A DNA stretch of 64,000 nucleotides from Myxococcales bacterium (GTDB taxonomy: Bacteria > Myxococcota_A > Polyangia > Fen-1088): the NCBI GenBank assembly GCA_003142855.1, contig PLNW01000122.1, positions 6,213 to 70,212 on the forward strand. The letters run 5' to 3'. The first letter of the stretch is position 1. Every line of letters starts with the position of its first letter. The position numbers were made by a program, and so were the translations under genes. The notes below the pieces were generated by a model. That model was given only the letters and a program-made list of their open reading frames with translations. It made no database searches and was not told the DNA's origin. Of the stretch, positions 16,439-59,999 are shown piece by piece.

Positions 16439-17784
16439 GCTTGCTCAATCTGCAAGCCATCCGCACGCAACTGACTCACGCCGAGCCCTGCGTGCTGGCC
16501 GGCCGGGTGACGCGCGCCTCGGGCATCGTGGTGGAGGCGGCGCTGCCCCAGGTGGCGGTGGGAACTTCGTGCGAGATTCACGCCGCCGGGAACCGCAAGG
16601 TTGCGGCTGAGGTGGTGGGCTTTGCTGGTTCGCAAGCCATCCTGATGCCATTCGGCGACGTGCGCGGCATCGGTGAGGGTTGCCCGGTCATCCCCCGCGC
16701 CAGCGCGGGCGAGATCGTCGTAGGTGAAGCGCTGCTCGGCCGGGTGGTTGACGCCGCCATGCGACCGCTCGACGGCATGCCCGCCCCGATTCTGCATACG
16801 CGCGTGCCTTTGCATGCGCCGCCCCCGCCTGCCATGAGCCGGCGGCGCATCAGCAAGCCTCTGGCGCTGGGCATCCGTTCCATCGACGCCTGCCTGACCT
16901 GCGGCGAGGGCCAGCGACTCGGCATCATGTCGGGCCCGGGCGTGGGCAAGAGCGTGCTTTTGGGCATGCTCGCGCGCAGTGCCGACGCCGACGTCATCGT
17001 GGTGGGGCTGGTGGGCGAACGCGGCCGCGAAGTGCGCGAGTTCGTGGAGCGCGACCTGGGCCAGGGTCTGCAGCGTTCCGTGGTCGTGGTGGCCACCGGC
17101 GACGAGCCACCCTTGGTGCGCGTGCGCGCCGCCATGGCCGCCACCGCGGTGGCCGAGTACTTCCGCAACCACGGCAAGCGCGTGCTCTTGTTGCTCGATT
17201 CGCTCACCCGGGTGGCCATGGCACAAAGGGAAATCGGGCTGGCCGCGGGCGAGCCTCCCACCGCGCGCGGCTATCCGCCGTCGGTGTTCGCCCTGCTGCC
17301 ACGCTTGGTGGAGCGTGCGGGAAACGTCGAGGGCGTGGGCAGCATCACCGCCATGTACACCGCTCTGGCCGAGGGTGACGATCTCACCGACCCGGTGGTC
17401 GATGCCGCGCGCGCGTGCCTGGATGGCCACATCGTACTGGCGCGCAAGCTGGCGCAACGGGGCCACTTCCCGGCCGTCGACCTGCTCGGCAGCGTAAGCC
17501 GGGTCATGAACGATATCGTGTCAGCCGGCCATCGCGATCTGGCGCAGGAAGCGCGCGAGGTTTTGGCCGCATACCGGGAGACAGCGGATCTCATCGAGGT
17601 GGGCGCGTACGTCGCTGGCACCAATGCGCGCGTCGACCGCGCTCTTCGCTGCATCAATGAAGTCAACAGCGTGCTTCGCCAGGGCCCGGAGGAACGTTTC
17701 ACGCTGGAGCAGACCTTGGCCGAGCTTAAGCGCGCGCTGGACGGGCCGCCTGCCGCGGCTCCGGCCAAGCAGGGAGTGCCATGA
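16435..17784 (+). CDS. fliI: Flagellar export ATPase FliI
   Basis: GPGVGKS, VGERGREVREF, DSLTR.AMAQREIGL..GEPP..GYPPS, LDGHIVL. Confidence 0.95.
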   Translation: MSLLNLQAIRTQLTHAEPCVLAGRVTRASGIVVEAALPQVAVGTSCEIHAAGNRKVAAEVVGFAGSQAILMPFGDVRGIGEGCPVIPRASAGEIVVGEALLGRVVDAAMRPLDGMPAPILHTRVPLHAPPPPAMSRRRISKPLALGIRSIDACLTCGEGQRLGIMSGPGVGKSVLLGMLARSADADVIVVGLVGERGREVREFVERDLGQGLQRSVVVVATGDEPPLVRVRAAMAATAVAEYFRNHGKRVLLLLDSLTRVAMAQREIGLAAGEPPTARGYPPSVFALLPRLVERAGNVEGVGSITAMYTALAEGDDLTDPVVDAARACLDGHIVLARKLAQRGHFPAVDLLGSVSRVMNDIVSAGHRDLAQEAREVLAAYRETADLIEVGAYVAGTNARVDRALRCINEVNSVLRQGPEERFTLEQTLAELKRALDGPPAAAPAKQGVP

Positions 17785-18614
17785 CGACAATGCTGTTGCA
17801 TCTATGGTTGCTCGCGGCCAGCGCGGCCGCCGCGCCGGACACCAGCCTCACGCCGCCGCCGCTCACACCTACGGTGGAAGGGCCGGCTGCACCTTCCCCG
17901 GCGCCACCGCCCCTGCCCACACTGCCCGGCCTCCCCGGATCAGCGGCAGGCTCGGGCGCCGGCGCTGCCTCGGGACGAGCGCGCGCGCCGGAAGCAAACC
18001 CGGTTGATGGACAGAAGGCCGCTACGCAGAAGCGTGATGCGAAATCTGACGGCTCCGCTCGACTCGGCGGCGACAAAAGCACGCGCACGCCTAGCAAACG
18101 ACCCGCCAAACCCGTCCTGCCCACGTTGACCCCCACGGCTCTCAAAGGCGAGTTGCACCAGACGCTGGCCAAACCGGGCGAGGCGCCCGTGCCGGTTACC
18201 GATCGGGCGCGTCTCGAGCAGTTGGCATCGGAGATCGCCCATGCGCGTGAGGCGCTCCGGCAGGAGACGGCCCGCCTGGAGGCGCTTGTCAAACAGGTCG
18301 GTCCGTGCGGCGAGGCTCGCAGTTCGTCGAGCGAGATCGACCCTGCTGCGGCTGCAGCAGCAACGGCGGCCAAAGAGGCGGCTCGCGAGCAGCTGGACAG
18401 CGTGTCCAAGGCTTTGAAAGGCATGAAGCCCGAACAAGCAGCGGCGGTGGTGTCGCTGCTGGATCACCGTCTGGCTGGCGAGGTTCTGCGTCGCATGCGG
18501 CCCGCCGACGCCGGGGCTTTGATGGGCTACTTGAAACCGGAGGTGGCCGCCGGGCTGGCCACCGAGATCGCAACCCGCAAGCCGACCCTGGCCAAGAAGG
18601 GAACCGCCCCATGA
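17781..18614 (+). CDS. MotE/FlbB-like flagellar protein (signal peptide, Pro-rich linker, MgtE-N-like C-terminus)
   Basis: C-terminal 'GMKPEQAAAVV..LAGEVLRRMRPADAGALMGYLKPEVAA'. Confidence 0.7.
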   Translation: MTTMLLHLWLLAASAAAAPDTSLTPPPLTPTVEGPAAPSPAPPPLPTLPGLPGSAAGSGAGAASGRARAPEANPVDGQKAATQKRDAKSDGSARLGGDKSTRTPSKRPAKPVLPTLTPTALKGELHQTLAKPGEAPVPVTDRARLEQLASEIAHAREALRQETARLEALVKQVGPCGEARSSSSEIDPAAAAAATAAKEAAREQLDSVSKALKGMKPEQAAAVVSLLDHRLAGEVLRRMRPADAGALMGYLKPEVAAGLATEIATRKPTLAKKGTAP

Positions 18615-20914
18615 AGCTCGTCGCCGCTGCTCTTGCGCAGCCCCAGTCCGAAACGGTTTCCCTTGGTTCTGGCAACGCTTCTGGTCGCGAGCGGGACAGC
18701 AACTTCGCCCAGCTGCTGCGAGGGTCGCTCGGCAAGTTGCAAGGGAACTCTTCGTCGCCAGCGCGGGCGACAACGCAGGAAACGCGGCCGGAGGGGACAG
18801 TGACGGCGGTTCAACTTCGCAGCTCGGGCGCGACTGAGTCCAGGGCGCCGGCCACCCCCTTCGGAGACTTCGGGGCCAACACCCCACCCCGCCTCCCCTC
18901 GCACGCTTCGCGCGCGCCCCTCGCGGCCACGACCACGGCTACGACTACGACTCACCTTTTCGGGGACTATGCCGCCAGCAACGCACGACCCGCACCGATC
19001 CCGCGGACAGCCGCACAGCCGACCGCCGCCGCCATTCCACGTGCGGCTGGCGACTTGGCAGAATTGCGCTCGCTGGAATTGGAAGGCACGGGCACGGGCA
19101 TAGTGATCACGACCTCCGCGACCCTGGGCGGACGCCTCATGGTGGTGGAAAGGGAAGCATCGTCACCTGCGCCAGCCACGATTTCCACAGCGAAGGCCGA
19201 TACCGCGAGCGCGGCCGATAGTCTTGCGCGGGCCGCGCTGGTACCTGCGCCGGCCACGACTGCGGCCTCAGCCACGACCGCGGCCACGGCTAGTGGATCG
19301 AGTGCAGTTCATGCCTTTGCACGGATGGCGCTGGCTCCTGCGCCGGCCACGACTACGGCCACGACAACTCCTGATGACTCGGGTGCGGCTCATCGCTTTG
19401 CACGGATCGCGCCGGCTTCTGCGCCGACCTCCCCCTTCGGGGACTTCGGGTCCGACACCACGCCCTGCCTCCCCGCGCGCGCTTCGCGCGCGCCCCTCGC
19501 CCCCTTCGGAGACTTCGGGTCCGACACCACGCCCTGCCTCCCCGCGCGCGCTTCGCACGCGCCCCTCGCGGCCACGACCACCACCACGGCTAGTGGATCG
19601 AGCTCGGCCCAGAGCTTTTCACAATCCACGGCGGATTCTCTGACGGCCCCCACGACTGGTGGATCGAATGCGGTTCATGCCTTTGCACGGATCGCGCTGG
19701 CTTCCGTGCCGACCACAGCCACGGCCACGACCGCCACCACGGCTAGTGGATCGAGTGCGGCTCAGAGCTCTGCACGAACCGCCGCGCATTCTGCGGCGAC
19801 CACGACCACGACCACGACCACGGCACCGGCACCGGCCACCGCCACGGTCACGGCTCCGGCACCGGCCGCCGCTGCCGATGCCGATGTCGCACCACTCACT
19901 GCTCAGGCTGGGCAACCCGCCGAGCTAGCCCAGGCAACACACGACGATTCCGCCGCATCGAATAGCGCACCGCCGCTGGTAGCTGGTGCGACCTCTCGTC
20001 CTGCCAAGCCCGCATCGGCTGCCCCACAGCCTGCTGCCCCGATGACAATTGTGAACGCCCAACCCGCCGCCGATGCGAAGGCGCCAACCGGGCCGGCCCC
20101 TCAGCCCTGGGCCGAGACGCGCGATCGAATCAGCGCGGCCCACTCGCAAGAACGCCCGCGTGCACAAGACAGCACCGATGATTCCAGCCCGGCGCCGTCC
20201 CCATCGCTGGCCATCTTCGGCGCGGCCGCGAATCCCATCACGCCTGCTGTCCATACCCACAACCTACACGCAAGCGAGAGGACCGCAGTTTCAGAGAATC
20301 CCCACGCGCTGCCGACCAGCGATAGCAAGCAGACCGCGGACCATGCGGCCCCTGCCTTGTCAGTGCCCGCCCAGACAACACACCAACCTGGCCAGAGCGG
20401 TCTTCGGGCTGAGGCGCAGGTGACCACGACTTTGCCGCAGGCCCTGCCGCAGGTCACGCTGCCACTTCCTACCCCGGCGACCAGCGCGGTAGCCGCCGAC
20501 CTTCGCGCCGCCGTTCACCTTCCGGCCCAGGCTGCACCTCTGGCCGCCCAGGCGGCGCGCGACGACGGACTTAGCATGACCGTACTGCCGCATGCCGCGC
20601 ACATGGCCATCGAATCGCCGGACGGGGATCTGGATTTGCACATGCGCGTGCGACAGGGCAGCGCCGAGATCACGGTGGGCGGATCCATGGCGCACCTCTT
20701 CGATACGCGCGCGCCCGAGGCCCGCGCGGCCCTGGCGGGCGAAGGTCTTGCCTTGGGTCGTTTCGATTCTGGCCAACAAGGTGGCGGGCAGCAGAACCAG
20801 CCGACGCCCGAAACCCCAGAAGCGGCAGGCGAATCGCCCACCGCCTACCGGCCCCACCAAACCGCCCCAGTTCCGATCGCGCTAGGCGACGGCCGCATCC
20901 ACGTCACTGCTTGA
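18611..20914 (+). CDS. fliK: Flagellar hook-length control protein FliK, expanded by repeats (767 aa)
   Basis: ATGA overlap with the upstream gene; Ala/Thr/Pro-rich body; C-terminal T3S4-like domain followed by a Q/G-rich tail; directly before flgD. Confidence 0.8.
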   Translation: MKLVAAALAQPQSETVSLGSGNASGRERDSNFAQLLRGSLGKLQGNSSSPARATTQETRPEGTVTAVQLRSSGATESRAPATPFGDFGANTPPRLPSHASRAPLAATTTATTTTHLFGDYAASNARPAPIPRTAAQPTAAAIPRAAGDLAELRSLELEGTGTGIVITTSATLGGRLMVVEREASSPAPATISTAKADTASAADSLARAALVPAPATTAASATTAATASGSSAVHAFARMALAPAPATTTATTTPDDSGAAHRFARIAPASAPTSPFGDFGSDTTPCLPARASRAPLAPFGDFGSDTTPCLPARASHAPLAATTTTTASGSSSAQSFSQSTADSLTAPTTGGSNAVHAFARIALASVPTTATATTATTASGSSAAQSSARTAAHSAATTTTTTTTAPAPATATVTAPAPAAAADADVAPLTAQAGQPAELAQATHDDSAASNSAPPLVAGATSRPAKPASAAPQPAAPMTIVNAQPAADAKAPTGPAPQPWAETRDRISAAHSQERPRAQDSTDDSSPAPSPSLAIFGAAANPITPAVHTHNLHASERTAVSENPHALPTSDSKQTADHAAPALSVPAQTTHQPGQSGLRAEAQVTTTLPQALPQVTLPLPTPATSAVAADLRAAVHLPAQAAPLAAQAARDDGLSMTVLPHAAHMAIESPDGDLDLHMRVRQGSAEITVGGSMAHLFDTRAPEARAALAGEGLALGRFDSGQQGGGQQNQPTPETPEAAGESPTAYRPHQTAPVPIALGDGRIHVTA
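18855..19572 (+). repeat. Three in-frame ~69-bp copies of repeat family B inside fliK
   Basis: Copies at ~18855-18928, 19432-19500 and 19501-19572 encode PFGDFG(S/A)(D/N)T.P.LP..AS.APLA; homologous to the reverse complement of 59797-59861. Confidence 0.9.
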
Positions 20915-20925
20915 AGGAGAGCACC

Positions 20926-21624
20926 ATGTCCATAGATACCTCGACAGTCACCAACGCAACTCAAGCTGTGCAACAGCCGGCTGACGCCACGGGCTCCAAC
21001 GAGCTGGGGAAGGACCAGTTCCTGCAGATCCTGACCGCACAGCTTGCCAATCAGGATCCCACTGCTCCCATGGACAGCAACGCCTTCGTGGCGCAACTAG
21101 CGCAGTTCTCTGCCTTGGAACAAGCGCAGAACACCAATGACACCCTCACGCAGATGCTGGCTTTGCAGCAGACGACTGGCCAGACCGGAAATGTTTCGGT
21201 GGCCGTGGCCGCGGTAGGCAAGCAAGCGTCCTACAACGCCAGTCAGATGACCCTCAGCGCGGGCGGAAGCCTCGGCGTGACCGCCATCCTGGCTTCACCG
21301 GCGACGAACGTTACCCTGGAAGTTGACGATGCCAACGGAAACCAAGTGCGCAGCCAGCAGTTCGGCGCCTTGGCGGCGGGGTCCAACAACCTGACCTGGG
21401 ACGGGTACAACGACGCGGGTGTGGCTCAGGCGCCCGGAAACTACACCCTCACTGTGTCAGCCACCGACATTTCCGGCAATCCCGTGTCGGTGACCCAGCA
21501 GGCCTCTGGCCTGGTCACCGGCGTCACGTTCCAGAATGGAGCCGCCCAACTCATGATCAACAACAATACGCCTGTCTCGCTTAGCGACCTCATTTCAATT
21601 CAGCAAGTCAACAGCACGCAGTAA
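20926..21624 (+). CDS. flgD: Flagellar hook cap protein FlgD
   Basis: LGKDQFLQILTAQLANQDPTAPMD..FVAQLAQFS; TWDG. Confidence 0.95.
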   Translation: MSIDTSTVTNATQAVQQPADATGSNELGKDQFLQILTAQLANQDPTAPMDSNAFVAQLAQFSALEQAQNTNDTLTQMLALQQTTGQTGNVSVAVAAVGKQASYNASQMTLSAGGSLGVTAILASPATNVTLEVDDANGNQVRSQQFGALAAGSNNLTWDGYNDAGVAQAPGNYTLTVSATDISGNPVSVTQQASGLVTGVTFQNGAAQLMINNNTPVSLSDLISIQQVNSTQ

Positions 21625-59401: not shown

Positions 59402-59704
59402 TGGACGCGCCTCATCTGGGGGTGGGTGCAAAAACTCGATGAGCCTACCAACCCATGACCAATATAACAACTGCACCACCTGACCTGAGAAACGAAAATT
59501 CCCTGCTGGTGCCGTCGGTTGCGAACCCTGGCGGTGTCGTTGCATGTCGTCCTTGCGCCTACCTGTATGACAGGTCGTCCTGCGCAAGACTACAAACGTC
59601 CTCACCACGGTGCGCAAGTGTGCCGCTGACACTCCAAATCGCAGCCTTGCGACCGCAGGTTGCGGGTGGAGAAACGTCGCACGGCTGATATGGGAACCCT
59701 GGAA

Positions 59705-59861
59705 GGGTTCGCTCCGCCCTTCGGCCCCCCACCCGCAACCTCCGCCCCGCTCGCTTTGCTCGGCCTCGCCATCCCTCCCGCGATGGGGCGCCGCCGGCGA
59801 GGGCGCGCGCGAAGCGCGCGGGGCGGGCAGGGTGGGCTGTCGTCCCGAAGTCCCTCAGGGG
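59705..59861. repeat. Extragenic palindromic element of family B
   Basis: GC hairpins; reverse complement of 59797-59861 shares gggacttcggg and cgcgcgcttcgcgcgcgccc with the fliK repeats; left boundary approximate. Confidence 0.75.
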
Positions 59862-59999
59862 CAAAGCCGGTCGGCTCCCCACGCGGCCCAGGCCGCGTTT
59901 TGACAGGGAAATATGATATGAATGCGCTCCGGTTGGCCCGGCGGTCCTCAGGCTTCCTGCGGCATCGCGCCCCGCCTCACCCCTGACTGGATGGATGAC

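Follow-up and report, generated by a model that had tools for sequence, protein, structure and literature searches.

The window analysed here is a 64,000-nucleotide stretch of contig PLNW01000122.1 from a Myxococcales bacterium, and its subject is a fliK-like open reading frame (ORF) of 767 residues (18611..20914, + strand), in which a 69-bp unit occurs three times within the variable, repeat-rich middle that separates a conserved N-terminus from a conserved C-terminal third. The first unit (core 18855-18923) extends to 18845..18947 with its flanks, as delimited by an alignment with an intergenic copy on contig C134 and by BLAST of its tail. The second (19432..19500) and third (19501..19569) lie in tandem, and all three are on the + strand. 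Unit 2 spans 23 codons, with the frame starting from 19433. Units 2 and 3 differ at 2 positions in 69 nt (97.1% identity), and unit 1 is 88.4% identical to either of them. With ATG 18611 setting the frame, translation gives PFGDFGANTPPRLPSHASRAPLA, PFGDFGSDTTPCLPARASRAPLA and PFGDFGSDTTPCLPARASHAPLA for the three units, each with the 23-codon peptide pattern PFGDFG..TP.LP..AS.APLA. The 5′ 18-mer of the units has five matches in the window at up to three mismatches, compared with 0.10 expected, and none of 100 shuffles reached five; the 3′ 26-mer has three matches against an expectation of 0.00.

An earlier note on this DNA had placed the units at 18855, 19432 and 19501 and had matched them to the reverse complement of an intergenic palindrome about 40 kb away, at 59797-59861. 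Both observations hold: the reverse complement shares with the units an exact 20-nt block and GGACTTCGGG, contains the GCGCGC-TTC-GCGCGC hairpin, and aligns with the three units at a mean column identity of 85% over the four sequences. A decayed trace of the unit, also claimed near 18955, was not recovered at up to three mismatches in 18. The stretch there is conserved FliK sequence, present even in a unit-free ortholog; a truncated unit copy is possible, given that at this place the sequence of the closest relative is more similar to the 5′ end of the unit. A second repeat of 81-93 nt, composed of a Thr/Ala run and SGSSAVHAFARIALAPAP, was detected by repeat finding in five copies (19164..19821, + strand), and BLAST of the genome matches it in fliK alone.

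The genome is a metagenome bin, a 6.0 Mb draft in 166 contigs with 64% GC. An iterated nhmmer search of it, seeded with four copies, converged on a family of 54 copies with a 60-63-nt core and the consensus CCTTCGGGGACTTCGGGACGGACAGCCCACCCTGCCCGCCCCGCGCGCTTCGCGCGCGCCCT. According to codon-usage gene calls, which were made with a crude caller and cover 88% of the 30 contigs concerned, 43 of these copies are intergenic, 5 lie in credible ORFs and 6 are ambiguous, being in weak ORFs or in small overlaps with gene ends. Thus the unit belongs to a dispersed and mostly intergenic family, as had been anticipated. The intergenic copies have either orientation and are found in every arrangement of the neighbouring genes. 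The ORF copies comprise the three in fliK, one in an ORF of 1292 residues and one in folP.

Subfamilies can be distinguished by their flanks. The fliK units belong to a subfamily with a 63-nt core, the left flank CCGGCCACCC and the right tail TCGCGGCCACG(A/G)CCACGG.TACGAC, which encodes Thr/Ala runs. The left flank of unit 1 and its right tail TCGCGGCCACGACCACGGCTACGAC, translated AATTTATT, are common to intergenic copies, and the tail has BLAST matches on C138, C134, C19, C99, C124, C72 and C70 (about 7 non-fliK sites). About 100 nt of unit 1, both flanks included, are shared with the aligned intergenic copy on C134, which is sited between gap and a membrane-protein gene.

Is the unit a palindromic element, as it had been named? 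The outer modules in which family copies are nested are true palindromes, with a folding z of −3.8 that was reached in 0 of 200 shuffles. The 62-bp core is only partly palindromic: it lacks a full palindrome, has two short hairpins, and constitutes a module within nested mosaics. The 3′ GCGCGC-TTC-GCGCGC stem reaches at least 6 bp in 30 of the 54 copies, and the 5′ stem at least 5 bp in 35. Folded as single strands, the 69-nt unit and the intergenic composite described below do only modestly better than their shuffles (z −0.5 to −2.2), so that we make no claim of RNA structure for the core. Searches of Rfam were empty, both across the whole window at gathering scores and, with E raised to 1, on 59600-59950. 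Like the REP/BIME elements (repetitive extragenic palindromic, REP, sequences and their mosaics), the family consists of imperfect, mostly extragenic, multi-copy palindromes in mosaic combinations, with a core that is palindromic only in part.

The intergenic match is itself part of a mosaic composite of about 203 nt (59687..59889, − strand), which consists of one core copy (59800-59861) and recurring modules, namely a 10-bp hairpin module, a CCCTTCGG..GCTCGGCCTCGCC module and an outer palindrome around the core. Each of these modules recurs 17-57 times genome-wide, and the ends of the composite are palindromic modules. In the closest congener, G007, the composite is precisely missing from the orthologous site and the coordinates are contiguous; it is also absent in G009 and G001. 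From these alignments, the composite would be either a recent gain in the present genome or a clean loss in G007. The empty-site comparison disclosed no clear target-site duplication beyond a few ambiguous bases. Insertion into hairpin loops was considered as a general rule and rejected, the intergenic empty site having a stem of only 4 bp (z +0.67 relative to shuffles). Elsewhere in the genome, clusters of family copies in both orientations, mixed with other modules, were noticed within a few hundred bases of each other at C72:123258-123700, C157:58000-59000 and C132:78400-80000.

Two further proteins carry the family in frame. The gene folP (L006:1648-2652, contig C23; Pterin_bind, 1.5e-74), located between ftsH and glmM, has a 195-nt in-frame mosaic insert after GVSRKRFIADLL. 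Six congeners have an empty site that reads straight through as FIGDLTGKPAxERVFG. In G008 only the outer palindromic modules are found; the present genome has the outer modules and a further module, with the core located in the loop of the outer palindrome, so that placement in a hairpin loop does hold for this copy; G007 contains yet another module. In the predicted structure, insert residues 222-284, a predicted disordered excursion, are the sole stretch with a predicted local distance difference test score (pLDDT) below 50 in an otherwise confident barrel. The second protein, of 1292 residues (L007:1352-5230, − strand, contig C99), belongs to no Pfam family and begins with a signal-like segment, just after which stands a single unit, read as in FliK. 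Among its orthologs in 8 readable species, the unit is present in 4, truncated in one, represented by the Thr/Ala run alone in two, and in one neither is found. The analogy to Rickettsia palindromic elements (RPEs), drawn earlier for fliK, fits these two cases, since the family stands in frame in folP and in the exported protein and congeners have empty sites.

These distributions bear on a different origin, in which the 23-residue motif began as a protein repeat of FliK or of exported linkers and was later copied to intergenic DNA. Such an origin would suit the small size of the FliK-type subfamily with the Thr/Ala tail (about 7 non-fliK copies), the frame shared by FliK and the 1292-residue protein, and another subfamily in which the GC hairpin is replaced by GCTCGCTACGCTCGC through changes that are not stem-compensatory. 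Against it, about 43 of the 54 copies are intergenic, with both orientations and every gene arrangement represented, most copies belong to subfamilies whose 3′ half would take another reading frame, and FliKs devoid of units exist in a genus that has the family throughout. In addition, a word-limited search of 5.8 billion protein clusters with the tandem unit in this frame brought up only 2 proteins at E up to 0.001, one of which aligns full-length with the present FliK. We regard a coding origin as very unlikely.

Across genomes, with at most 29 candidates scored in each, the family is present in 10 of 10 congeneric genomes. Of 8 other genera in the same taxonomic family, 2 gave 2-3 weak matches, and of 12 genomes from outside that family but within the class, 6 gave 1-5 weak matches. 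As judged from these matches, the repeat family is genus-specific, being rare or unfound in other genera.

The fliK orthologs of the congeners, when aligned for presence and copy number of the unit, differ from 0 to 5 units. Loci L001-L005 duplicate L014, L015, L019, L017 and L018, and each pair was counted once. Compared with the three units of the present 767-residue FliK, L001 (730 residues) has five, one of them crossing a run of N. L002 (693 residues) has one clear unit (nhmmer E 2.8e-10) and three weaker matches (E 0.0025-0.44), with two degenerate copies in the translation. Of the partial genes, L019 has four units (E up to 3e-6) and one weak match, one of its units being interrupted; L017 has one unit, at the contig end; L018 has two weak matches; and L021 has none. 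No unit was found by nhmmer at E up to 10 in the complete L016 (629 residues) or in the near-complete gene made up of L020 plus L056, estimated at about 1,090 residues. A FliK query found no match in G002 or in the 97%-complete congener G009. The units sit at partly different sites among congeneric FliKs. Thr/Ala runs of at least 6 residues number 6 in the present gene, 5 in L001 and 2 in L002, and are lacking in the two unit-free genes. Units of other species read GTDSPP, which is the intergenic consensus, at the place where the present genome reads GSDTTP. In L019 (1501-3258, − strand), the interrupted unit is split by an in-frame insert of about 60 residues reading ..GVKRGLTEKSVTPSPRSAGEKVGMRG.., a nested insertion in the ruler; from its sequence, the insert looks like a different GC-rich repeat.

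A DNA alignment with the closest relative shows that the first unit site holds one unit here and two there, and that the relative has one extra unit, of 81 nt, at present-genome position 19732, while the present gene has about 170 nt more of the 81-93-nt repeats. Orthologous units of the two genomes differ at 5-7 of 69 nt, about as much as their flanks, and in the unit 2 pair, read by codon, the changes are mostly amino-acid changing. Within the present genome, the mere 2-nt difference between units 2 and 3 suggests a recent duplication or gene conversion.

Other records document alleles of this gene. A near-identical protein, P0001 (726 residues), keeps all three units and lacks one 31-residue repeat and some Thr codons. 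From a DNA run of another study (X6), a 2,257-nt contig is identical over 18650-19471, a span that takes in unit 1 and the beginning of unit 2. A 685-nt contig from an RNA library (X15), about 93-95% alike, skips exactly 69 nt (19441 to 19511) and 93 nt (19234 to 19328), and by this alignment represents an allele short of one unit and one long repeat; as RNA libraries can hold DNA, it is not taken as a sign of expression. A junction from 18874 to 19541 in run X8 was left unused, for one side of it measures 26 nt and may stem from another organism or repeat. These records also argue against an artefact, in which binning or assembly chimeras would have put repeat copies into fliK. The bin does consist of 166 contigs with an estimated contamination of 8.2%, the fliK of a relative has its run of N within a unit, and Logan contigs break at the tandem pair; nevertheless, in-frame fliK units are found in several separately assembled genomes, the X6 contig is identical to the bin over the span given above, and the independent record P0001 carries all three units. 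An artefact is therefore extremely improbable.

Is the host ORF a FliK? Its position is that of a fliK gene, between the export-ATPase genes and flgD-flgE. The cluster runs in the order sigma-54 activator, rod protein, fliE, fliF, fliG, fliH, fliI, an MgtE_N-like gene and the fliK-like ORF, and continues with flgD, flgE, flbD, motA and motB, with fliD, fliS and flagellins on the opposite strand. This arrangement presumably corresponds to that of the Bacillus fla/che operon. The gene immediately upstream (17781..18614, + strand, 277 residues) has a weak MgtE_N/FliG_M-like C-terminus, and the hook-cap gene flgD (20911..21624, + strand; Pfam FlgD 2e-21, FlgD_ig 1.8e-19) overlaps the stop of fliK. 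The Pfam family Flg_hook (PF02120) matches in the right part of the protein at E 0.012 and 15.8 bits, below the cut-off of 29.8. A profile of 7 FliK orthologs searched against PDB sequences gave chance-level rows and no FliK chain.

In the ortholog alignment, the first ~50 and the last ~250 of the 767 residues are conserved, with variable sequence between them. An AlphaFold model of the protein, computed with 7 orthologs, has pLDDT below 50 almost everywhere, including nearly all of residues 1-656, with residues 662-717 as the exception. A folded C-terminal domain is predicted at residues 657-721 (20579..20773, + strand) with the order strand-strand-strand-helix-helix-strand, resembling a T3S4-like switch domain; its pLDDT of only 59-70 makes it moderate evidence. 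The best structural match of this region is 5cuk_A, the substrate-switch domain of PscP (Z 5.7, root-mean-square deviation 2.6, 64 residues, 20% identity). The next row has Z 3.9, and Salmonella FliK-C (2rrl) comes at rank 16 with Z 3.1. Taken together, the gene order, the predicted disorder and the PscP-like fold make FliK a credible assignment for 18611..20914, with a long ruler region predicted to be disordered and Flg_hook contributing a sub-threshold match only. The full flagellar gene cluster (9134-29725) was also noted in its own right, as it lies in a lineage whose relatives are labelled Myxococcales, and Myxococcales are usually described as non-flagellate gliders.

The units in fliK are in-frame copies of one subfamily of this genus-specific interspersed repeat, and we consider it probable that the length variation to which they give rise in FliK is a selfish or neutral by-product of repeat activity. 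Copies of the subfamily would have entered the disordered ruler by insertion or by recombination between (GCCACG)n tracts, and tandem duplication and homogenisation of the resulting units would have followed. The direction from element to fliK is suggested by the existence of unit-free FliKs, by the GTDSPP units of other species, which match the intergenic consensus, and by the flanks of unit 1, which are those of an intergenic copy. The units may be tolerated because the core is open in nearly all frames (in every one of the six, 46 to 54 of the 54 cores contain no stop), because the length added by the subfamily is divisible by three, and because the ruler needs length rather than a fold. 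The FliK-length variation among congeners would be heritable, and would become hook-length variation if the Salmonella slope applies. In a study of engineered Salmonella FliK, proteins of 363-785 residues gave hooks of 42-135 nm, with 0.2 nm per inserted residue (PMC6126814). By analogy, one 23-residue unit would add roughly 4.6 nm to the hook if 0.2 nm per residue applies to this proline-rich, probably non-helical insert.

Several points weigh against this explanation. The fliK sites are (GCCACG)n tracts and not hairpins, which makes recombination or slippage as possible as transposition. For the core, neither a clear target-site duplication nor terminal inverted repeats were found. The family showed no link to a transposase, with Y1_Tnp the only parent insertion sequence sought; the Y1_Tnp/RAYT search of the genome gave one PF01797 match (24.4 bits, C78:22801-23031), with the nearest family modules more than 15 kb away. 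The length gap between the 767- and 726-residue alleles comes from the fliK-private 93-nt repeat and Thr/Ala runs, not from units. All genomes compared are metagenome bins, and the count of two at the tandem pair, inside which Logan contigs break, rests on the assemblies of the bins. The gene caller miscalled the low-complexity middle of fliK, and the comparison of presence and absence is one among orthologs. Apart from these points, a Y1-transposase-like gene of 331 residues was seen at L045:913-1908 (− strand, contig C78), with stretches about 72-76% similar in DNA on C23, C97 and C138; none of the stretches on these four contigs was seen adjoining the repeat family.

A more ambitious explanation is domestication, in which selection exploits the gain, loss and duplication of units to tune the length of the hook and units are kept for the length they add. 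In-frame units do persist in the FliK of at least five congeners, the 23-codon period is kept by all FliK units, and in Salmonella the hook lengthens linearly with the ruler, its length having an influence on motility (PMC6126814). Three observations speak against selection of this kind: the units of the present genome and its closest relative have diverged like their flanks, with mostly amino-acid-changing differences in unit 2; two congeners manage without units; and the length differences of the closest alleles come from other repeats. Moreover, staying in frame is a requirement for any surviving insertion and is no evidence of benefit. Nothing in the evidence requires the domestication reading, which we judge unlikely, and the explanation as a selfish or neutral by-product is preferred.

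How does this family compare with known repeats? The REP/BIME elements of enterobacteria and the REPINs of Pseudomonas are GC-rich imperfect palindromes, mostly extragenic, present in tens of copies and arranged in mosaics; copies within genes and in frame are atypical for REPs. In architecture the present family is closest to REP/BIME mosaics, being mostly extragenic, with tens of copies, mosaic arrangement and palindromic outer modules, whereas its core is no palindrome and no repeat-flanked RAYT-type gene was found in this genome; its relation to any named family is left as a likeness. In behaviour it is closest to the RPEs and to other intragenic repeats resembling miniature inverted-repeat transposable elements, as described in a review (PMC10969869). 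According to that review, RPEs (Ogata et al. 2000, 2002) have intergenic copies and in-frame copies in unrelated genes, including housekeeping enzymes. Both are short repeats located between genes and in frame, adding a peptide where the fold tolerates it, and the likeness is one of behaviour only. The differences are that the present host is a free-living peatland bacterium of 64% GC and 6 Mb rather than a reduced, AT-rich endosymbiont; that the core measures 62-69 bp instead of about 150 bp, is partly palindromic and is nested in mosaics; and that ORFs hold about 5 of the 54 copies, compared with nearly half for some RPE families.

The FliK units also resemble the engineered length variants of FliK and YscP, which have extra residues in the ruler between the N-terminus and the T3S4 domain (PMC6126814). 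Those variants are laboratory constructs with helical inserts, whereas the present inserts are natural, proline-rich, predicted to be disordered, derived from a repeat and known from sequence. Judged by its listings, a literature search for FliK together with miniature inverted-repeat or repetitive extragenic palindromic elements showed no such case. The kind of event is already known, and the novelty lies in the repeat family itself, in the lineage that hosts it and in the protein that carries it.

In-frame capture of repeats has been well documented mainly in Rickettsia, and the present case adds another setting, unrelated to the first: a soil lineage, uncultured, free-living and high in GC, in which empty sites are clean and the essential enzyme gene folP shows graded nested states. 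FliK is an unusual host for such a repeat, for its output is a length, and the effect of a selfish-DNA insertion could thus be read directly by electron microscopy. A broader proposal, which we offer tentatively and think rather doubtful, is that the family with its Thr/Ala tail acts as a standing generator of disordered linkers for the exported proteins of this genus, with hook length an evolvable trait encoded by repeat number and under selection in peat populations. If this were true, selfish DNA would have produced in nature what the engineered ruler series provides in the laboratory. In the explanation that we prefer, a selfish repeat family would be a natural source of variation in the length of the FliK ruler.

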